64,000 nucleotides of DNA from an uncultured Chloroflexia bacterium (GCA_963833225.1 CAWHXD010000017.1:224001-288000); one strand, 5' to 3'; positions 1 to 8,673 are shown, counted from the stretch's first letter. The notes: generated by a model not told the origin, from the letters alone. Translations and numbers: made by a program.

Positions 1-245
1 TGGCGCTCCCGCTCTCCCGCGATCCCATCGGCGATGACGCCGCTCGCGAGCAACAACGGGACCCAGGCAAAGGGGAGGATGGCCACCGGCTCGCGCACGA
101 GGTCCGGCCCGATCTGGAGCGGTAGGAAGACCCCGAAGATGACCAGCGAGAACGCCAGCCCGCGGAGCGACTTCTTGAGGCTTCCCGACGCGAAGAGGAG
201 ACCGCGAAGATCCTTCCAGACGATGGTGAGGGCGTCCGCGATCAC
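1..245 (-). CDS. ABC-2 type transporter permease (runs off window start)
   Basis: Manual translation from GTG at 245 (GTGA overlap with ATPase stop): MIADALTIVWKDLRGLL...GVIADGIAGERERH, hydrophobic with the typical AGERE motif. Confidence 0.85.
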   Translation of the reverse strand, partial: MIADALTIVWKDLRGLLFASGSLKKSLRGLAFSLVIFGVFLPLQIGPDLVREPVAILPFAWVPLLLASGVIADGIAGERER

Positions 246-1174
246 GCCTCACCCCCGACGAGCGTCATGAAGGCTTCCTCGAGGTCCGCGCTTCCTTTGC
301 GCACCTCGTCGATGGCCACGCCCTCCTCGACCAGCAGGGCGACCACGGGCGCGGTGTCGACGCCGTCGCGCAGCCGCAGCGTGAGCTTCCCGTCATCGAG
401 CTCGACCGATGCTGCGGCCGGCTGGGCATGCACGAGGGCTGCGATCCTCGCGTCGATCCCTCGTCCCGTGATCTCCATCCGCCCCGATCCGGCACGCGAC
501 CGCAGCTCGTCCGGCCGGCCCACGGCGAGCAGCCCGCCGCGGTTGATCACCCCAACGAGGTCGCAGAGCTTCTCGGCCTCGGCCAGGTTGTGCGTCGTCA
601 GGAACACGGTCACGCCTTCGCGCCGCGCCAAGGCCGTCAGGTCCTCGCGCAGTGCCGCAGCAGCGATTGGGTCGAGCCCCGCGGTCGGTTCGTCGAGGAA
701 CACGAGGGCCGGCCGATGGAGCAGCGTCCGGGCCACGGCGAGCTTCTGCTTCATGCCGCGGCTCCAAGCGCCCACGATCTCGCGCCTGCGCTCCCACAGG
801 TCCAGCCCGGTCAGGAGCTCCCTGACGCGTGCCTGGCGCTCAACGCTCGAGAGGCGCCACACCCGCGCGTAGAAGTCGAGGTTGTCCTGGGCAGTCATCC
901 GCTCGTACAGCCCGGGGTGTTCGAGCAGAGCGCCACAACGTTCGCGGATCGCGCCCGCGTCGGTCCTGGTGTCGTGGCCGAGCACATCGGCGATCCCCGC
1001 GGTCGGTTCGAGCAGGCCCAGGAGCAGCCGGATCGTCGTCGTCTTGCCCGAGCCATTGGGGCCAAGGAAGCCGAAGATCACGCCCGTGGGCACGTCGAGC
1101 GACAGCCCGTCCACGGCGCGGAGCACGCCAAAGTCGCGGGTCAGGTCACGCGTATGGATGGCGAGATCGGGCAC
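242..1174 (-). CDS. ABC transporter ATP-binding protein
   Basis: Walker A GPNGSGKTT, signature WSRGMKQK, Walker B VFLDEPT; start set at GTG 1174 after AGGAGAGGGA RBS. Confidence 0.95.
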   Translation of the reverse strand: MPDLAIHTRDLTRDFGVLRAVDGLSLDVPTGVIFGFLGPNGSGKTTTIRLLLGLLEPTAGIADVLGHDTRTDAGAIRERCGALLEHPGLYERMTAQDNLDFYARVWRLSSVERQARVRELLTGLDLWERRREIVGAWSRGMKQKLAVARTLLHRPALVFLDEPTAGLDPIAAAALREDLTALARREGVTVFLTTHNLAEAEKLCDLVGVINRGGLLAVGRPDELRSRAGSGRMEITGRGIDARIAALVHAQPAAASVELDDGKLTLRLRDGVDTAPVVALLVEEGVAIDEVRKGSADLEEAFMTLVGGEA

Positions 1175-1420
1175 GTAGTCCCTCTCCTGCGCGGCGTATC
1201 TGGGGAGTCGTCCAATTCTAGTCGCCCGCTGGGCCGGCCCGTCTGTATGCCGCCACCCGCCACGATGGCACGATCGTGACCGCGTTCCGACGGCAGTGGG
1301 CGTGCGGCCATTCGGTCCGAACAGGCCCCCATCGGGCAGCATCTGGTGCGCCACCGGACCGAGGAAGCCGAGCCAGTCAAGAGCCGTCGCGCGCGAGCGC
1401 AGGCAGCGCGTGCGCGCGAC

Positions 1421-1448
1421 GTCCGCGAGCGTGCGCCGATGCAACGTG
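1421..1448 (+). repeat. 28-bp intergenic direct repeat, copy A (right arm degenerate)
   Basis: GTCCGCGAGCGTGCGCCGATGCAACGTG. Confidence 0.75.
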
Positions 1449-1504
1449 ACGGGGTCGGGAGCGGACGGTGCGATACTGCCGAAACCCAACCCTCAGGAGG
1501 CAAC

Positions 1505-1747
1505 GTGACTGAGACAGCCACACCGAAGCCGGCTGCGCCTGGCTTCGTCGTCCTGCGTCAGGTCGGCGGGGACCGCTGGCAAATGCTGGGCGAGGTCCGT
1601 CGAAGGCAAGGGCTTCCCGCCAGAGCCGCCCGAACGCAGGCGATCCTTGATGCGACGAACGGCGAGGCGAAGGCCGGCGAGGTTTACGCGGCCGTCCTTC
1701 GCAGCGAGTGGCGGATCGCCATGGACTGGGTGCCCCCGAAGGCCTAG
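1505..1747 (+). CDS. small hypothetical protein (80 aa)
   Basis: AGGAGG RBS at 1495-1500 before GTG; lies between repeat copies A and B. Confidence 0.75.
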   Translation: MTETATPKPAAPGFVVLRQVGGDRWQMLGEVRRRQGLPARAARTQAILDATNGEAKAGEVYAAVLRSEWRIAMDWVPPKA

Positions 1748-1762
1748 GCACAGGACCGCGGG

Positions 1763-1790
1763 GTCCGCGAGCGTCCGGCAGTGTCACCTG
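1763..1790 (+). repeat. 28-bp intergenic direct repeat, copy B
   Basis: GTCCGCGAGCGTCCGGCAGTGTCACCTG. Confidence 0.85.
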
Positions 1791-1820
1791 ATCGAAGGGC
1801 GGTCGTTCTGTGGTGCCGCG

Positions 1821-2012
1821 CTACCGGTAGCCGCCCTTGCCGTCCTTGCGAGCGAGCTCGACCCGCCGGAGCTGCGCTGGGTCGAGGTCGGCCTGTCGCT
1901 TGCCGTCGATGTCGGGCGGCGGTGCGTCGGTTGGAGGTGACTGCGGCAGCAGGCTCGCGATCGTGCCGACAACCCGCTTGAGCGCGGCCACCGCGGGCGT
2001 GATGAGCGACAT
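1821..2012 (-). CDS. small hypothetical protein
   Basis: GGAG RBS before ATG (MSLITPAVAA...); stop 30 bp from repeat B. Confidence 0.55.
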   Translation of the reverse strand: MSLITPAVAALKRVVGTIASLLPQSPPTDAPPPDIDGKRQADLDPAQLRRVELARKDGKGGYR

Positions 2013-2147
2013 CAGGGACTCTCCATAAGGGCGCATCCGCACCCGAGCGCATCATGCTCGGCAAGGGAAGCCCGGTCAATCGAGCAGCCGCCACACCCCG
2101 GACGGCCAGTCGGTTCGGGGGGCTCGGCTTCCAAACGCGTGATTCGC

Positions 2148-2669
2148 TCAGGGCGCAAGCGCGGCGCGCACCCGCTCCGGATACTTCTTCTCCGCGGCCG
2201 TCGCATTGCCTCCGAACGTCCCGCCCGGCACGACGACCTCCACGAGCAGGTTCTGCACGCCGACCCACTCCGAGTGCACAACGCCGTCCCAGCTGACGGT
2301 GCCGCGCGGACCCTGGATGCTCATTCCGCCGAACCCGGGCTGCATCGCCATGCGCTCGGCGGGGGTTGGGTAGACCAACACGACCCCGATGGCTCTCCCG
2401 ATCCCCTTGGCCGTGGTGGTGGTTCCGCGATAGACGAGCTCCGGAAAGACGCCCATGTCGCGATCGTCGGTGGTCGCCACGAGCGAAAGACCGGGATCCA
2501 AGGTCTGGAGTCGGCCCTCGATGTCGGCGAGCGCAAGTGGGGCTGCGGCGGGCGTCGGCTCCGGGGCGACGGATGCCACGCTCGCAGCCGGCGGGGGCAC
2601 GGGAGGCGTCGATGCACACGCCGCGAACACCGCCGCCGATGCTGCCAGGGCGAGAAGCCGCTTCATCAT
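2148..2669 (-). CDS. putative lipoprotein
   Basis: Signal peptide MMKRLLALAASAAVFAAC with lipobox-like FAAC, then Pro-rich linker. Confidence 0.8.
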   Translation of the reverse strand: MMKRLLALAASAAVFAACASTPPVPPPAASVASVAPEPTPAAAPLALADIEGRLQTLDPGLSLVATTDDRDMGVFPELVYRGTTTTAKGIGRAIGVVLVYPTPAERMAMQPGFGGMSIQGPRGTVSWDGVVHSEWVGVQNLLVEVVVPGGTFGGNATAAEKKYPERVRAALAP

Positions 2670-2779
2670 GTCCCGAAATCGCTCATTGCTGGAGCCATCT
2701 TCGGCTCCGGGACACGCCAGTCAAGAGCGAGCGGGCACGCGTCCCTGCCCCGAGGCCCTCGACCGCTCCCGCTGCGCCG

Positions 2780-3136
2780 CTACTTCGCTGCCCAGCCGGA
2801 CAGGGGCTCTGGTGGCGCGGCGAACCCCCCACTCGCGAGGATGTCAACGCCGAGGACATCGCGGCACCATTCGACATACCAGCGGTCGTAATCCGAGTTC
2901 TCCGGATCGAATACGCGGCTGCCCATCAGCTTCAGGTCCTCGGGCTCGATGTCGTAGGTATTGACCCGAAGGTCGAGGCCGCTTGAGAGATGGCTGGCCC
3001 ACATCGCATGCGCCTTCAGCCGAAACCTCGCGTTGAGGGCCTCGTACTCGACCCGGTGTTCTTCAAGCTCGGTGGCCAGTCGCCGGGCTCGGTCCATCGT
3101 TCCCGGGAGGATGGGCTTGGCGGCTCCAAACAGCAT
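2780..3136 (-). CDS. hypothetical protein
   Basis: GGAGG RBS before ATG (MLFGAAKPILPG...); globular composition. Confidence 0.75.
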   Translation of the reverse strand: MLFGAAKPILPGTMDRARRLATELEEHRVEYEALNARFRLKAHAMWASHLSSGLDLRVNTYDIEPEDLKLMGSRVFDPENSDYDRWYVEWCRDVLGVDILASGGFAAPPEPLSGWAAK

Positions 3137-3632
3137 GGTCGCGCCTCCTTCCGACTTGATGGGCAACGAACGCGGGCGTGATGACCGACATCGAGGGACC
3201 TCCCTCACGGGCGAATCGGCGCCCGAGCCCCATCATCCTCGGCTTGGTTGGCGCGGGTCAATCGACCCTGCGGAACCACGGTGCCCGCCGGGGTCCAGTG
3301 CCGCCCGGCGGCCCCCTGGACGCGCGGTGCCACAACCGGTTCCCGCCAGGGAGTCAGAGCACGACTGTTCGTCGCGGGCTCTGTCCCCGGCGACATCGGA
3401 TCTGCTGTCGGTCAGCCACCAGACGACTACGTGTCAACCGGGCAGGCCGACACGGGCCCCGACCTGGGCGTCGACGCCGCCGGGCCGGGACGAGCAGTCG
3501 TCCTGTGACTGGCTGGCAGGAATCGCCCGATGCGGAAACAGGCCGGTCTTAGGGCCTGTAGCCGATTGATCCCGCACGAACTACCACGTTTGTGCCATTC
3601 AAGTTGACGCTCCCGGCTGTCAGGCTGCCCTC

Positions 3633-4482
3633 ATGGGCGCGGTGACCGAGCTGACGGACGAGGAGTGGGGGCTGGTCAAGCACTTGTTCGACCCGCCCAC
3701 GCATCGCGGCGTCAAGGGCACGATCCCGCGACGCGACATCGTGGACGCGATCCTGTGGGTCGCCCGGACCGGCTGCCAGTGGCGGCACCTGCCCGACGGG
3801 TTCCCGGACTGGCAGGCCGTGTGGAGCCAGTGGCGTCGGTGGCGGGACAACGGCACCTGGGCAGCCGCGATGCGCGTGCTCGCGCGGGAGATCCGGCTCC
3901 GGCACAAGCGCACGGCGGACCCGACGATGGTCATGATCGACGGCCAGACGGTGAAGGGCGGGCGCGGCGGGCCAACGTTCGACGAGGCCGGCGGGCGCGG
4001 CGGCTACACGCGCGGCGCCAAGCGCACGATCCTGATCGAGATCCTCGGGCTGCCGCTTCGCGGTGTCGGTCAAATCGGCCAAGCCGCACGATGTCCAGTC
4101 GGCGCGGCGGATCCTCAAGGACCAGCTGGACGCGCCCCCAGCCCAGCAGCCGAAGCTACCTGGCCTCCAGGCCATCGTCGCCGACCGTGGCTACACGGGC
4201 CTCGCCGCGCTGGCCAACACCCACGGCCTCAACCTCGACATCAAGCGGCCGCCCCCCGCCCCGATGCTGCCGCCCGCGAAGCCCGGCGGGAAGCCGAGGA
4301 AGGGCAAGCGCACCTTCACCCCGATCCGTCCGCTCTACAAGGTCGAGAACGCCTTTGCCCGGCTCGGGATGTGGCGCCAGCTGTCTCGGTGCTATGAGCA
4401 GACGGCGCTCGGCGCGCAGACCTGGCTCGAGGTCGCCTGCGTCGCTTACCTGTGCGGGAGGCTGCGCGTCGAGCCGACGTAG
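3633..4482 (+). CDS. IS5-family DDE transposase, frameshifted near 4059
   Basis: N-terminal LTDEEW...RTGCQWRHLP, IDGQTVK, then second frame with ADRGY and YKVENAFARL...LSRCYE; one extra base at CTGCCGCTTCGCG. Confidence 0.9.
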
Positions 4483-4970
4483 GCGCCCATCAGGCGCGTC
4501 GTAGCCTGGACGAGAACGCCCCAGAGGAACGTAATCGGCAGAGCGGCGATCACGGCGGCCGCGCCGTAGAACACCAGCCCGTAGAGGCCAAGCACGGCGA
4601 CCGCACCCACCACTTCGAGCGGACCGCTGACCCCGACCCGAAGTTCCGCCGGCTGACTCGCGAGCATGGTTGCGACATAGGCGAGAGCACCGAGTGGGAG
4701 CCCGATGAGGATCGCGGCGATCGATCCACCGAAGGCGGTCCAGCGATCGCCCGGGGCAACGCCGGGACCGAGCAGCCATCCGACAACCAGCGCGACGGGC
4801 ACCGCGACGACCACGATGGGCCCGGCATCTGGCGTGGACGTGACGGGCATGCCGAGGAGCAGCGCAAAGAGGGGTGCGAACAGCACGGCGGCCGGTATCC
4901 CCCACAGGGCACCGACCACGTGTGCGTTGGTCCTCGGTGACACCGCTAATGTGATACTCACAGGTAGCAC
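4446..4970 (-). CDS. membrane protein, IS passenger (start uncertain, possibly 4943)
   Basis: About 5 hydrophobic segments; inside the IS inverted repeats and convergent with the transposase. Confidence 0.7.
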   Translation of the reverse strand: MLPVSITLAVSPRTNAHVVGALWGIPAAVLFAPLFALLLGMPVTSTPDAGPIVVVAVPVALVVGWLLGPGVAPGDRWTAFGGSIAAILIGLPLGALAYVATMLASQPAELRVGVSGPLEVVGAVAVLGLYGLVFYGAAAVIAALPITFLWGVLVQATTRLMGAYVGSTRSLPHR

Positions 4971-5133
4971 AATGGTTCAAGGGCCTCGACTTGTCAAGCG
5001 GGTGGCGTAATCGGCTACAGGCTCTGAGTGACTCCCCCTTCGCCGGTAGCCATCGCCCCATCAAGCACGCGATCGGGAGGCTCGATGGGTCGCTGAAGCT
5101 CTGCTGACGCCGGTCGAGCCGCATGGCGGCATC

Positions 5134-5161
5134 GTCCGCGAGGGTGCGCCAATGACACCTG
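5134..5161 (+). repeat. 28-bp intergenic direct repeat, copy C
   Basis: GTCCGCGAGGGTGCGCCAATGACACCTG. Confidence 0.9.
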
Positions 5162-5201
5162 ACCCTCAGCACCGCCGACCCAGCTCGCAGGCCTGTGCAG
5201 G

Positions 5202-5720
5202 TCACATCGCCGAGGGGGTGCCGACGCGTTCGAGGACGGCCTCGACCTGCGGCAAGGCAGCGAGGTACTGGCGGTCGGCCAACTGCTTGAGCGCCACGAA
5301 CAGAGCGGTCGCGACGACATCGGCAAGGACGAACGCGGCAAGACTGGCGACGGTGCCCAACAGGAGCAGCGGCGCGGCCAGCACCAGCCCGAGGCTGATC
5401 GCGATCGGCCAGTCCCACTTGCTCGCGGGTGTGGTCGCGCGACCGACAAGCCGCGTACCTGTGCCCTGCGGGACGAGCTCACCTCGGACTTCGAGGGCGA
5501 GCGGGTACTGCGTGTGGATCCGCCCGGGCTCACTGTGCGCGTCGATCAGGAGGTCGAGCCTCCGCCCCCCGACCGACCCGCGCACGAGCCAAAACGACCA
5601 GGTGGCATGCCCCGCGTCCTCGTAGCGCTCCTCGGCGATGGCGCGCCCGATCGCGGCCGCGACCGCGTCTGGTGGCACGTCCCACCTGGCACTGACCGAG
5701 CGACTGATGAGCGATCTCAC
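5202..5720 (-). CDS. hypothetical membrane protein
   Basis: Soluble N-terminal domain plus two C-terminal hydrophobic helices; between repeats C and D. Confidence 0.7.
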   Translation of the reverse strand: MRSLISRSVSARWDVPPDAVAAAIGRAIAEERYEDAGHATWSFWLVRGSVGGRRLDLLIDAHSEPGRIHTQYPLALEVRGELVPQGTGTRLVGRATTPASKWDWPIAISLGLVLAAPLLLLGTVASLAAFVLADVVATALFVALKQLADRQYLAALPQVEAVLERVGTPSAM

Positions 5721-5807
5721 AGCGGACCTCGCGCTCTCCCCGCTCTCATCGTCCGAGCGACCTTCGCCCTGGTCAAGGTGCCGTTCGTACCGAGACGTGG
5801 CGGCCCG

Positions 5808-5835
5808 ATCTGCGAGGGTGCGCCAATGTCACCCG
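5808..5835 (+). repeat. 28-bp intergenic direct repeat, copy D
   Basis: ATCTGCGAGGGTGCGCCAATGTCACCCG. Confidence 0.9.
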
Positions 5836-5840
5836 GCAGA

Positions 5841-6035
5841 TCAGCAGCGCGACAGAGCGAGGATTGCCGTGCCGGAGGCCAGGGCGACAGCGGACCACAG
5901 GCCGACCGACGCCCATGGCAGGACGGCGAACATCGGCGTCAGGAGTGCCCACGCTGTGTAGGCAAGGCCTACACCAGCAACAGCAATCAGGCTGCCACCG
6001 GCGACGCTGCCGACAACACGCGCCAAGGTCCTCAT
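5841..6035 (-). CDS. small two-helix membrane protein
   Basis: MRTLARVVGSVAGGSLIAVAGVGLAY..., hydrophobic; stop 5 bp from repeat D. Confidence 0.5.
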   Translation of the reverse strand: MRTLARVVGSVAGGSLIAVAGVGLAYTAWALLTPMFAVLPWASVGLWSAVALASGTAILALSRC

Positions 6036-6388
6036 CGATTGTCCTGGACGATCGCCGCGGCCCATACGGGTCGCCTGGGTCGCAATGCGTCCGCGCAATG
6101 TCCCCTGATGCAGGTGGGGATCACCTGGGCAGAGGGGCATCCCACCATCGAAGCGCGAGGGCACGCTGGACTTCGCGCGGATCGCCCGCGAGCAGGTCTC
6201 GAAGGACCTCAGTCTGGTTGGCGAACGCCCGTGCAATCTCAAGGGCGTCAGCCGCGCTCCGGGCCTGCGACAGCGATCTGCCGGAGCGCCTTCGGGCCGG
6301 AGAAGGAGCGCTCGTCGGTGTCGCCGGTCGATTGACCGTGCCCTGGTTGTCCTTGGAGGCTCACGGGCAGATAGTACGCACTGGCAAT

Positions 6389-6416
6389 CTCCGCGAGCGT
6401 GTGTCAACCACACCTG
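6389..6416 (+). repeat. 28-bp intergenic direct repeat, copy E
   Basis: CTCCGCGAGCGTGTGTCAACCACACCTG. Confidence 0.8.
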
Positions 6417-6474
6417 GTGACCAGCTAGGGGCGGACGCGCTTGGATGAGCCGCAAAGCCCGTCCGCGTTAGGAG

Positions 6475-6783
6475 CTACGGACTTGCGCTCGGTCCCGGCT
6501 CGGCGCGCAGGCACAACTTGCCTTCGGGGGTGCCGAACTCGGCGTCGGATCCAGTCGGGCACGTGGCGTCCCTGCCCACCCAGGAGAGAACAACGTGGGT
6601 GTGTGGGCCGGAGCAGTCGGCGTTCCCGATCTGCTGGTGGTCGCCATCCGCCGACCCGTCGAAGTTCACGCACGCGCCGTCAGGGAAGCCGTCAGCCACG
6701 TCGTCGCGCTGTCGGCATGCCCCGATGGAAGCCGCGACCAGGAGCGTCCCCAGCAAGAACGGCAAAACGCGCAGTGATGTCAA
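6475..6783 (-). CDS. Cys-rich putative lipoprotein (LppU/SCO3897-like), start approximate
   Basis: Signal peptide ending IGAC; pattern GACV..ADC..H..VL..CP..LCL. Confidence 0.65.
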   Translation of the reverse strand: MTSLRVLPFLLGTLLVAASIGACRQRDDVADGFPDGACVNFDGSADGDHQQIGNADCSGPHTHVVLSWVGRDATCPTGSDAEFGTPEGKLCLRAEPGPSASP

Positions 6784-6947
6784 TCGAAGGCACTGAGCCC
6801 GATCGACATGACCCCTGCCCACGCGATATAGGCAAGCGCGAGGACGAGCACTCCCGCCAGGATCTGCCTTCCAGTCAATCGAGACACAGTCGGGTTCCTC
6901 GTGCGCAGCTGCCGCTGCGTATGCTCGTCACGATAGATGAGGCTTTG

Positions 6948-6975
6948 GTCCGCGAGCGTTTGCAGATGTCACCCG
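6948..6975 (+). repeat. 28-bp direct repeat, copy F; contains the stop codon of the adjacent gene
   Basis: GTCCGCGAGCGTTTGCAGATGTCACCCG; the minus-strand TGA of ORF 6969..7532 lies in TGTCACC. Confidence 0.85.
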
Positions 6976-7532
6976 AGACGGGCGAACGGCACCGGCTCCC
7001 GACCGCCGACCAGGTCCGCAAGCGCGGCGACGACAGTGCGCATCGACGTGTCGGCTAGGTAGCAGTCATAGCCGTCGGCGATGCACTCGAATGTGGAGTC
7101 ATGGAAGCCGAGGATGAAATGGCGCAAGCGCTCGAACCGCTCAGGCCGATGCAGGGGATGCACCCGGTTGGCCGCCTCCAGCTCCCGGATCCACGCGCTG
7201 CCCATCACCTCAGCCGCACCGTAGTGCCCTGCGTCCGCCAGGCCGCTCGACCAGAGCGCGTGCCCGTGAAGGGCCTCATCGTTCAGGCCACCGAGCACAG
7301 CCCCGCGACAGTCGAGCCACTCAACGATGCCGATCTCGCCTTGGTTCGGTTCCTCGGGAGGCAGAGCGGTGAGCGGCCCGAGCTTGAGGGCGGTAGCGGC
7401 GAGCCCGAACGCCAGGAACGTCCGAAACTCGGACTGAATCAGCACCGGCTCGGGCGCACCCGAATCCCAGCCGAGACCGATATCGATCGGATGGACCTGC
7501 TCGCCAGTGGTTTGGTCGTGTCCGAAACGCAC
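6969..7532 (-). CDS. hypothetical protein (NDEA..GH / FHDSTFEC motifs)
   Basis: GGAGG RBS; motifs LNDEALHGH, WIRELE..NRVH and RHF..FHDSTFECIA, recalled from an uncharacterised accessory family. Confidence 0.8.
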   Translation of the reverse strand: MRFGHDQTTGEQVHPIDIGLGWDSGAPEPVLIQSEFRTFLAFGLAATALKLGPLTALPPEEPNQGEIGIVEWLDCRGAVLGGLNDEALHGHALWSSGLADAGHYGAAEVMGSAWIRELEAANRVHPLHRPERFERLRHFILGFHDSTFECIADGYDCYLADTSMRTVVAALADLVGGREPVPFARLG

Positions 7533-7643
7533 ACTGCCTCCGATCGCCGCTCTCGGATAGGCCGGCTCGTCGAGCAGCGAAGTATCGACCGATTGTGAGG
7601 GAAATGGAGGACCCGGGGTCCGGACAAGTCACGCCAGGTTCTC

Positions 7644-7660
7644 GTCCGCGAGTGTCATCT
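7644..7660 (+). repeat. internally deleted repeat, copy G
   Basis: GTCCGCGAG joined directly to TGTCATCT; about 10 central bases missing. Confidence 0.5.
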
Positions 7661-7710
7661 CCCCCGACCGCGCAACCGCGATCCGTGCCCGTGCGGCAGA
7701 AGCGCCGGGG

Positions 7711-8673
7711 TCAGACCCCGCTCGCGCCCGCCTCGGCGAGGTACTGCCGCGCGGCGGCGCCTCGGACCTGCCGGATGTCCTCCTCGTACTTGAGGACCAC
7801 GCCCAGGGTCTCGTCCACGAGATCCGGGTCAAGCTCGGTCGCGCCCAGGGAGAGCAGCGCTCCGGCCCAATCGAGCGTCTCGGCAACCCCCGGGACCTTG
7901 GTCAGATCGGCCGTGCGCAGGCGGTGGACAAAGGCGACGACCTCGTGGGCGAGGCGCGCGGGGACGTCCGGCACCCGGGTGGAGACGATCTCGAACTCCT
8001 TGTTTGCGGTCGGGTAGTCGATCCAGTGGTAGAGGCAGCGCCGCTTGAGGGCGTCGTGCACCTCGCGGGTCCGGTTCGACGTCAGGATCACGCGCGGGGC
8101 CTTCGTGGCCCGGATGGTGCCGATCTCGGGAACCGTGACCTGGAAGTCGGACAGGATCTCCAGCAGGTAGGCCTCGAACTCCTCGTCCGCGCGGTCGATC
8201 TCGTCGATGAGCAGGACTGGCGGCGTGCCCTCGTGGTCCTCGAGCGCCTGGAGGAGCGGGCGCTTGAGCAGGAACTCCGGGCCGAAGATGTCGTGCGCCG
8301 ACGCCTTCGCGATGTCGCCGCGAGCCTCGAGGAGGCGGATCTCCAGCATCTGCCGCGGGTAGTTCCACTCGTAGACCGCGGTGTTGACGTCGAGACCCTC
8401 GTAGCACTGGAGGCGGATCAGGCGCGCGCCCAGGCTGGAGGCCAGGACCTTCGCGAGCTCCGTCTTGCCCACGCCGGCCTCCCCCTCAAGAAGTAGCGGG
8501 CGGCCAAGCTCCAGGGCCAGGAAGACGGTGGTCGCGAGCGAGCGCTCGGCGATGTACCCGTGGCTGCGGAAGGCGTTCGCGATGCCCTCGATGGATCGGG
8601 TCGCCTCGGGGCGGTCCTCGCGGGCGGCGGACCGGGTGGCGGCGGAGGTCACGGGAGTGGGCTGATCAACCAT
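7711..8673 (-). CDS. coxD: MoxR-family AAA+ ATPase, CoxD-like
   Basis: LEGEAGVGKT, RLQCYEGLD, LLIDEIDRAD, HDALKRRC; downstream of coxSLM. Confidence 0.9.
   Translation of the reverse strand: MVDQPTPVTSAATRSAAREDRPEATRSIEGIANAFRSHGYIAERSLATTVFLALELGRPLLLEGEAGVGKTELAKVLASSLGARLIRLQCYEGLDVNTAVYEWNYPRQMLEIRLLEARGDIAKASAHDIFGPEFLLKRPLLQALEDHEGTPPVLLIDEIDRADEEFEAYLLEILSDFQVTVPEIGTIRATKAPRVILTSNRTREVHDALKRRCLYHWIDYPTANKEFEIVSTRVPDVPARLAHEVVAFVHRLRTADLTKVPGVAETLDWAGALLSLGATELDPDLVDETLGVVLKYEEDIRQVRGAAARQYLAEAGASGV

Follow-up and report, generated by a model that had tools for sequence, protein, structure and literature searches.

Introduction

Integrons are the textbook gene-capture system and are defined by IntI together with folded attC sites, i.e., imperfect palindromes of ~60-140 nucleotides (nt) with paired core sites that fold as single strands. 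Discrete modules in varied contexts are likewise bounded by 28-bp sites on Acinetobacter plasmids, where the recombinase acting on these plasmid dif (pdif) sites is a host enzyme supplied in trans. Both dif and pdif sites consist of two inverted, Xer-binding arms of 11 bp around a 6-bp spacer, and they alternate in orientation. Here we describe a 28-nt repeat, termed R, that separates small genes in an array carried by an uncultured Chloroflexia bacterium (GCA_963833225.1, CAWHXD010000017.1:224001-288000; this whole stretch of 64,000 nt is referred to below as the window). Modules bounded by R are a unit of gene exchange in a whole bacterial family, and they may constitute an integron-like gene-capture system of a new type.

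In promoters of the PhoB type and of the Streptomyces antibiotic regulatory protein (SARP) type, tandem direct repeats one helical turn apart end ~12 nt upstream of the -10 hexamer and replace the -35 box. To our knowledge such sites are scattered through a regulon, and we know of no case in which they form the boundaries of exchangeable modules. Reused or mobile promoters, in which one promoter-like sequence lies upstream of many unrelated genes, have also been described, at least in the accessible part of that report (PMC3575422). The nearest published analogue that we found, judged from the available portion of the preprint describing them, is the recombinase-associated acquired interbacterial defence 1 (rAID-1) clusters of Bacteroidales, which are long co-directional arrays of small genes with repetitive intergenic sequences, are reminiscent of integrons, and have a skewed composition and signs of active gene acquisition (bioRxiv 10.1101/471110). 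They are defined by a gene for a XerD-like recombinase at the 5' end, and their cargo consists of immunity genes (bioRxiv 10.1101/471110). In the literature retrieved on Limnocylindria integrons, Chloroflexi attC sites, integron-like direct repeats with an unassigned recombinase and mobile promoters, R was not described.

Results

R Is a Tandemly Structured Repeat Found in Three Co-Oriented Clusters

A repeat search of the window found six full copies of R in register (copies A to F in Table 1), with start-to-start spacings of 342, 3371, 674, 581 and 559 nt, and a shortened copy, GTCCGCGAGTGTCATCTC, that starts at 7644, i.e., 696 nt from the copy at 6948. The number, places and common orientation of these copies agreed with an initial annotation of the window, which had been made from the sequence alone. 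All the copies in the window share a strand, which is the one antisense to the cassette genes when the motif is written as it first had been; read on the cassette-gene strand, the consensus is tCAGGTGACATTSSCGCACGCTSGCGGAC. At up to three mismatches, the degenerate consensus (IUPAC code) of the initial annotation recovered four of the six copies, those at 1421 and 6389 differing more, and it had no matches in 100 shuffles.

A position weight matrix (PWM) built from the six window copies was scanned over the whole assembly (3.89 Mb in 20 contigs, 71% G+C, 86% complete). The six copies scored 34.7-41.1 bits and five additional ones, located at 465-469 kb of contig C7 and at the beginning of contig C15, scored 26.6-38.1 bits; the next best site in the genome reached 17.3 bits. 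The same 11 copies were returned by nhmmer at E ≤ 1.7e-4, together with three weaker, indel-bearing copies, all within the C7 cluster. The contig that holds the window had no further full copy in either scan, none was found in repeat scans of window positions 9000-64000, and the genome scans with the PWM and nhmmer returned no inverted copy on either strand. Because the 11 strong and three weak copies are confined to three clusters, each in one orientation rather than scattered in both, repetitive extragenic palindromes (REP) and bacterial interspersed mosaic elements (BIME) were rejected as alternatives.

The conserved block measures 29 nt and has sharp edges and unrelated flanks. Its consensus holds two tandem 10-nt units, ACATTGGCGC and ACGCTCGCGG, followed by AC, and the self-similarity of R is 0.58 at an offset of 10, compared with ≤0.39 at the other offsets within 7-13. 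The short form is 18 nt long, retaining GGTGAC and one unit and lacking the central 10 nt of the full repeat. It was found at array heads, i.e., at 7644 in the window, on contig C15 and in the counterparts of C15 in two other genomes (G079 and G029), and possibly in a third (G070). The tandem 10-nt structure, the short form at array heads and the -10 box with its start codon (see below) were new relative to the first reading of this DNA.

R-Bounded Modules Are Gained, Lost, Duplicated and Reordered

The clearest comparison of a filled and an empty site came from contig C15 and a contig of G079, which are 98-99.6% identical on both sides of a one-module difference. The empty form has the short R, GAGGTGAC GCTCGCGGAG, and then the leader of the next gene; the filled form has the same short R, a 185-aa gene, a full R, and then the same leader. 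Two polymorphisms inside R set the crossover after position 24 of 28.

Metagenome contigs carried other forms of the window array. One of them joins 6949 to 7646, so that exactly 696 nt, from the short R to the first full R, are missing, with seven shared bases at the joint. A second joins 1757 to 3244 and lacks a 1486-nt, three-gene block with its R; position 3244 is the 3' edge of R*, a degenerate repeat that, in our reading of the sequence, is probably a decayed R. In a third, the 118-aa gene of this block has its own R in that sample (loose end at 2740). A further joint, 4429 to 6647, was disregarded because only 21 nt support it on one of its sides. Contigs that are 99.4% identical through a 104-aa gene and its R were unrelated from 2-3 nt after R.

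Within this genome, the lipoprotein module at 6390-6773 is duplicated together with its rare R variant in the C7 array, at 95% identity. The two copies are homologous up to and including the final base of R, and an IS110-type element interrupts the one on C7. Cassette 5 of the window, which is interrupted by an insertion sequence, is contiguous in the C7 array and ends there in a full R (window 5027-5182 and 3266-3548 match locus L001 9432-9871), and the empty site of the insertion sequence is preserved. Between species, an R-flanked DUF6984 module in the C7 array is 90% identical to one in an array downstream of MoxR in G008, and module order varies (A-X-Y-B versus B-A; P,Q,S versus P,S,Q). 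Most junctions lie in the last bases of R, and two events place a gene plus R directly after the short R. No target duplications or subterminal hairpins were found at the insertions. Identical gene content in relatives, which the initial annotation had named as something that would refute its reading, was not observed: whole modules differ between genomes and metagenome contigs.

At the locus in the window itself an empty-site comparison was impossible, because none of 80 MoxR loci from other species held R and none had an ATP-binding cassette (ABC) gene downstream. The closest MoxR loci came from Chloroflexota of the Limnocylindria/Limnocylindrales lineage, and homology to relatives stops at ~7705-7733, i.e., at the MoxR stop.

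R Arrays Occur across a Family

The searches took in roughly 470 genomes, all of them metagenome bins, together with metagenome contigs. R was present in 13 of 36 congeneric genomes in a first draw, and in 26 of the 69 other species of the genus in the full set. It occurred in 24 of 137 genomes of the family (class-wide draw of 401) and in 5 of 153 genomes of a second family of the class, one of these five being flagged unpublished; it was found in none of 16 genomes of a small-genome sister family and none of 92 from another family of the class. A reversed-pattern control gave 0-1 matches per search. Exact matches to R were also found in twelve metagenome contigs, several of which terminate at R, as assemblies do at repeats.

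All 16 multi-copy loci, from 14 genomes and with 69 copies in total, were co-oriented, and in these loci R lies between small, mostly unannotatable genes. In G017, a stretch of 19 kb contains at least 17 copies, all in one orientation. Copies are more alike within genomes (similarity 0.84, and 0.90 within G017) than between genomes (0.78). In other genera the 5' part of R (GGTGACATTGGCGCAC) is conserved, and the last ten bases vary by genus.

The gap from stop codon to R had a median of 48 nt and was often -10 to 40 nt, and the median distance from R to the next start was 155 nt (59-75 repeat-gene pairs), the large values being overestimates because the gene caller misses small open reading frames (ORFs). 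R follows the 3' end of the preceding gene more closely than it precedes the start of the next one. The terminal R of an array can face a gene that is convergent or inverted, and 14-17 of ~75 flanking genes are on the opposite strand.

Nine of 46 cassette proteins passed the Pfam cut-off, matching DUF7674, DUF6984, DUF6714, Rce1-like, SnoaL (twice), DpnI-like, S51 peptidase and TPR families. No named immunity family was among these nine, and PADLOC gave one match in 10, the DpnI-like enzyme.

In the second family of the class, a single R lies 12-65 nt from the start of a conserved, cupin-like gene of 130 aa (L131 4958-4984, L132 5152-5181 and L133 5020-5049). Compared with the arrays it is oriented the other way round, and on the side away from the cupin-like gene its neighbors vary.

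A Promoter-Like Geometry Downstream of R

Beyond the conserved block, the sequence signal downstream of R is weaker. A hexamer of the form TANNNT started 10-13 nt after R in 11 of 59 copies, nine of them at exactly +12, whereas the controls gave 0 of 59 in each of 12 windows. In eight of these 11, ATG or GTG followed 6-7 nt after the hexamer (5 to 7 nt in one case) and opened an ORF, which in six of the eight ran through the end of the 200 nt examined. Judged by spacing, this geometry resembles that of promoters for leaderless mRNAs; R would span about -25 to -52 and itself looks like the -35-side half of such promoters. Two features of activator-dependent, direct-repeat promoters are present, i.e., tandem repeats of ~10 nt and a -10 box at a fixed distance, and the mapped crossover falls between R and the predicted -10 box.

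A sigma-70-type promoter inside R was rejected: hexamer spacings do not fit, and a consensus scan gave two promoter-like sites, neither at a full R. Readings of R as a sigma-54-type or extracytoplasmic function (ECF)-type motif, as a Shine-Dalgarno-like element or as coding sequence were dropped by eye, no conserved partners being seen. In one genome only (G093, L020 3727-4885), an ORF pair that by eye resembles an ECF sigma factor and its anti-sigma factor lies ~1.4 kb upstream of an R array.

Proposed Mechanism and Observations That Weigh against It

The anatomy and distribution of the arrays, the module-level differences, the junction positions and the spacing of -10 boxes and start codons could be explained if R were the 3'-terminal site of small mobile gene modules. 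Each module would begin with a short leader at its 5' end, in many cases carrying a -10 box, and would end in R; between the two would lie a single gene or at times two or three, now and then in inverted orientation. Modules would be stacked head to tail into arrays. To exchange modules, two R sites would recombine and cross over within their final bases, and new modules would enter directly after the 18-nt, one-unit R at the array head. The R of one module and the -10 box of the next would together form a promoter, frequently for a leaderless mRNA. The resident R would be paired with the -10 box of each incoming module, whose own R would in turn serve the module after it, so that every captured module would be expressed wherever it landed. 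A protein would bind the tandem units, recombination would be site-specific and catalyzed by an unlinked recombinase, and transcription would start at the predicted places.

Taken in full as set out here, with exchange of R-bounded modules at R and an additional role of R in transcription, the proposal stands in our view just on the probable side of even. For a dedicated, unlinked site-specific recombinase as the agent of exchange, the balance is close to even but tilts slightly the other way. We advance only tentatively, as possible rather than probable, the broader claim that these arrays represent a new class of gene-capture platform in Limnocylindria, with a non-palindromic 28-nt site that is half a promoter, a one-unit site in the role of attI, and an unlinked recombinase of a family not so far tied to cassette arrays.

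Several observations weigh against this mechanism, and the first concern the recombinase. When flank proteins of loci from 14 genomes were clustered, three types of transposase recurred beside the arrays but no recombinase did. The PF00589 domain is encoded in this genome by three full genes and one fragment, none near an array; all three tyrosine recombinases are Xer-like and score 107, 91 and 63 bits against integron-integrase models whose cut-off is 265. Four serine recombinase genes are likewise not near an array. A large serine recombinase was considered and rejected as a candidate: of 70 genomes of the genus only three carry homologues, one of these three is devoid of R, and this genome has no homologue. 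Of the initial annotation's proposal of a gene-capture system whose recombinase is not encoded in the window, the gain and loss of modules at the repeat and the absence of a recombinase gene in or next to the window array have both been borne out; none of the individual candidates examined for a dedicated recombinase co-occurs with R.

Features of the site itself and of its junctions also count against the proposal. R is non-palindromic and has no second inverted arm, in contrast to the core sites on which known tyrosine or serine recombinases act; the sole trace of an inverted partner of its 5' arm is a downstream element with 3.66 of 9 matches against a background of 2.25, a signal so weak that this candidate was dropped. 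Forty-eight of the 59 copies lack a canonical -10 box. The filled and empty forms in C15 and G079 are similar for ~30 nt beyond R, so that homologous or slipped recombination could also account for that pair. The coincidence of breakpoints with the repeat, which the initial annotation had made a test of its reading, holds for most junctions but not for all: the homology between L008 and L012 ends in the middle or 5' part of R, and L007 has half an R fused to a module as well as two modules joined without R. Finally, the genomes are all metagenome bins, this one being 86% complete, and contig C15 may have been recently transferred or mis-binned, because 7.2 kb of it (L002, C15 831-8075) are 99.6% identical to L022 of G079 and the MoxR genes just 79%.

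Three observations on recombinases and transposases near R are recorded here in their own right. On two metagenome contigs, an R array is immediately preceded, in the same orientation, by the C-terminal part of a large serine recombinase (Zn_ribbon_recom; L113 4499-5134 and L120 6979-7290). An IS110-family element (L001 6016-7408, C7 464015-465407) lies 12 nt from R on C7; this proximity was judged incidental, because the target is CCCCT|CTAGC for all three copies in the genome. Compared with the other two, the array copy has lost 36 nt.

Alternative Explanations

The most serious rival is recombination between repeated promoter elements. R would then be only a cis-regulatory element, i.e., an activator site of tandem 10-nt repeats or an unusual -35 element, of a lineage-specific accessory regulon, and host enzymes would recombine the repeated promoters; the gain, loss and shuffling of modules would be a side effect of recombination, whether homologous, slipped-strand or illegitimate, and there would be no dedicated recombinase. 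The tandem-unit structure of R, its constant distance from the -10 box and the start codons that follow 6-7 nt after that box, and the lack of a linked recombinase all fit such a regulon. So do crossovers compatible with exchange inside the conserved 3' unit, breakpoints that in some cases lie inside R or leave half repeats, and the single copies beside one conserved cupin-like gene in another family. However, a promoter element would not be expected to follow the 3' end of the upstream gene more closely than the start of the downstream one, nor to end an array facing a convergent or inverted gene, nor to have 14-17 of ~75 flanking genes on the opposite strand, and a canonical -10 box accompanies only 11 of the 59 copies. 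Homology of 28 nt, often with just 11 nt of perfect identity, would moreover make a poor substrate for RecA. How unrelated genes each gained the same 28-nt element, and why a distinct short form at array heads precedes insertions, would also be left unexplained. On balance we consider this account less likely than not, though it has to be taken seriously.

Site-specific exchange at R also has to be set against transposition. The modules could be non-autonomous derivatives of a transposable element that ends in R and inserts beside its own end, by a one-ended, rolling-circle-like or related route, which would give head-to-tail arrays. Strong conservation of just one end of each module, insertion exactly beside an existing R, and the frequent breaking of contigs at R, as at mobile repeats, are in keeping with this. 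We nevertheless regard it as improbable: among the loci examined there was no autonomous element or transposase gene with R at its end, the insertion sequences present (two-frame transposase, IS110 and IS256 types) use their own ends and targets, and target duplications and subterminal hairpins were absent.

Action of R at the RNA level, as a shared 3'-untranslated region, terminator or processing signal, would suit its position 0-60 nt after stop codons but is highly improbable, as 78-nt segments around 59 copies folded no better than shuffles (mean z about 0.1, at 0.11 and 0.06 on the two strands), no terminator-like site was found in 1200-7900, Rfam had no match at R, and module exchange would be left unexplained.

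Discussion

In layout these arrays resemble integrons, particularly sedentary chromosomal ones. Small genes that are unrelated to one another, mostly present singly and for the most part impossible to annotate are lined up in one orientation; every cassette has at its 3' end a site that in some cases includes the stop codon and whose extreme 3' end is where the crossover falls; and there is a distinct head site, after which new cassettes are added. As in integrons, a few cassettes are inverted, insertion sequences occur inside arrays, and sites vary less within a genome than between genomes. There are also differences. No IntI was found (best score 107 bits against a cut-off of 265) and no recombinase gene is adjacent, in a genome that is 86% complete. 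R is 28 nt long and asymmetric, with tandem direct 10-nt units, and is neither an imperfect palindrome nor foldable, so that the length, paired core sites and single-strand folding of attC are all missing; an attC-like hairpin or terminator at R was rejected for want of a fold signal and of a terminator. R appears, from its position relative to the predicted -10 box, to give half a promoter to the next cassette, whereas integrons rely on one common promoter (Pc). There are, finally, several arrays per genome.

Clustered regularly interspaced short palindromic repeats (CRISPR) were rejected because the spacings of 342-3371 nt contain genes and are not uniform short spacers, although cas genes were not searched for. 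Membership of the integron, CRISPR, REP and Xer-site classes is contradicted in each case by the failure of a defining feature that was tested, and on attC and CRISPR this upholds the initial annotation, which had set the repeat apart from them. The genome-wide, REP-like scatter that it had named as something that would refute its reading was likewise not observed.

From dif and pdif sites R differs in having no dyad and no arms, in that all copies are direct, and in that its self-similarity is direct, at an offset of 10. A palindromic ATAA-N6-TTAT core at ~75,837 on contig C8 is the only one on a high-G+C contig; it is unlike R and is a candidate chromosome dimer resolution site. Two other matches to this core lie in AT-rich stretches of contig C5.

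Like rAID-1 clusters, as far as the accessible description of these goes, the arrays have repetitive intergenic sequences between co-directional small genes. Unlike them, they lie in another phylum, and have no XerD-like recombinase gene at the array head, which in the window abuts the MoxR gene instead; this distinction is drawn from the description available. Among their Pfam-matched cargo no named immunity family was recognized. PhoB- and SARP-type promoters resemble R in having two direct repeats that end ~12 nt before a -10 hexamer. Mobile promoters, in the part of that report available to us, were found as similar upstream regions generally, and not as co-oriented arrays with precise module junctions (PMC3575422).

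If the proposed mechanism is correct, R arrays would offer a second, mechanistically different route to building and expressing cassette arrays, based on a short asymmetric site that doubles as half a promoter with no adjacent recombinase, and the concept of the integron would be widened. The biochemical question would then be which protein reads the tandem units. Even if R were merely a repeated promoter, the arrays would still show cleanly, in nature, how the reuse of promoters drives the exchange of gene modules. With its 19-nt conserved part, R would provide a handle for mining the accessory genes of an abundant, uncultured lineage of soil and sediment.

Gene Content of the Window Array

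Features of the array and its flanks are listed in Table 1. Because the ORF list of this genome (71% G+C) is dominated by spurious frames, genes were called with a codon-usage model trained on its long ORFs.

Table 1. Coordinates of the array and flanking genes in the window, from the array head to the far flank (positions counted from the first letter of the window)
Feature	Position	Strand	Details
MoxR/CoxD-type AAA ATPase	7711..8673	-	Pfam AAA_5 and AAA_3; conserved flank at array head
Short R	7644..7661	-	Gene strand GAGATGACACTCGCGGAC; array head, 50 nt after MoxR/CoxD stop
Cassette 1	6976..7643	-	187-aa gene 6969-7532, no known family; TGA inside R at 6948
R copy F	6948..6975	-	Gene strand CGGGTGACATCTGCAAACGCTCGCGGAC; TATCGT box 6930-6935, 12 nt downstream
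Cassette 2	6417..6947	-	35-aa membrane ORF 6780-6887 overlaps start of ~102-aa lipoprotein gene 6475-6783
R copy E	6389..6416	-	Rare variant CAGGTGTGGTTGACACACGCTCGCGGAG; TACTAT box 6371-6376, GTG 6 nt later at 6364
Cassette 3	5836..6388	-	Candidate leaderless 38-codon ORF 6248-6364; 64-aa membrane protein gene 5841-6035
R copy D	5808..5835	-	Found by repeat search, PWM and nhmmer
Cassette 4	5162..5807	-	172-aa gene 5202-5720; two hydrophobic segments, no Pfam family
R copy C	5134..5161	-	Best consensus match
Cassette 5	3269..5133	-	~390-nt module, no clear gene, split by insertion sequence
Insertion sequence	3549..5026	+	1478 bp, single genome copy; separate from repeat system
Degenerate R*	3244..3268	-	GGTCGATTGACCCGCGCCAACCAAG; about half of positions match R; at expected end of cassette 5
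Cassette 6	1791..3243	-	Three genes: 118 aa 2780-3136, 172-aa lipoprotein 2148-2666, 63 aa 1821-2012
R copy B	1763..1790	-	Found by repeat search, PWM and nhmmer
Cassette 7, inverted	1449..1762	+	80-aa gene 1505-1747, AGGAGG ribosome site
R copy A	1421..1448	-	Last of array; 246 nt upstream of ABC ATPase gene start
ABC-type ATPase	242..1174	-	Walker A motif in translation; other flank

The initial annotation had placed the repeat 0-60 bp past the ends of minus-strand genes, in a block between ABC and cox loci, with copy F supplying a stop codon. Each point matches Table 1, the gaps measured being 30, 40, 5 and 58 nt for the minus-strand genes ending at 1821, 5202, 5841 and 6475, respectively. 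The claim that most intervals hold one short gene needed amendment: the 3371-nt interval contains three genes, the 1478-bp insertion sequence and the degenerate repeat, two other intervals have two small ORFs each, and the interval 1449-1762 has its gene on the plus strand. None of nine window cassette proteins tested was assigned to a Pfam family, and in a protein atlas the 187-aa protein of cassette 1 fell only into clusters labeled "hypothetical protein". Third-position G+C content was 0.68-0.875 in cassette genes, compared with 0.875-0.94 in the flanking genes.

The insertion sequence has 20-nt terminal inverted repeats (3548-3567 and 5009-5028) and a two-frame transposase (3633-4482), and a gene for a related transposase lies beside the G017 array. 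It also seems to carry a passenger, a 157-aa, five-helix membrane ORF on the minus strand at 4446-4919.

A region comprising a ribosome site and a start, and encoding MS(L/V)ITPA, recurs in the window at 78-88% identity (1992-2031, 3171-3210 and 5695-5719). It coincides with the start of the 63-aa gene, with a 42-codon upstream ORF that overlaps the start of the 118-aa gene and, more weakly, with the start of the 172-aa gene at 5695-5719.

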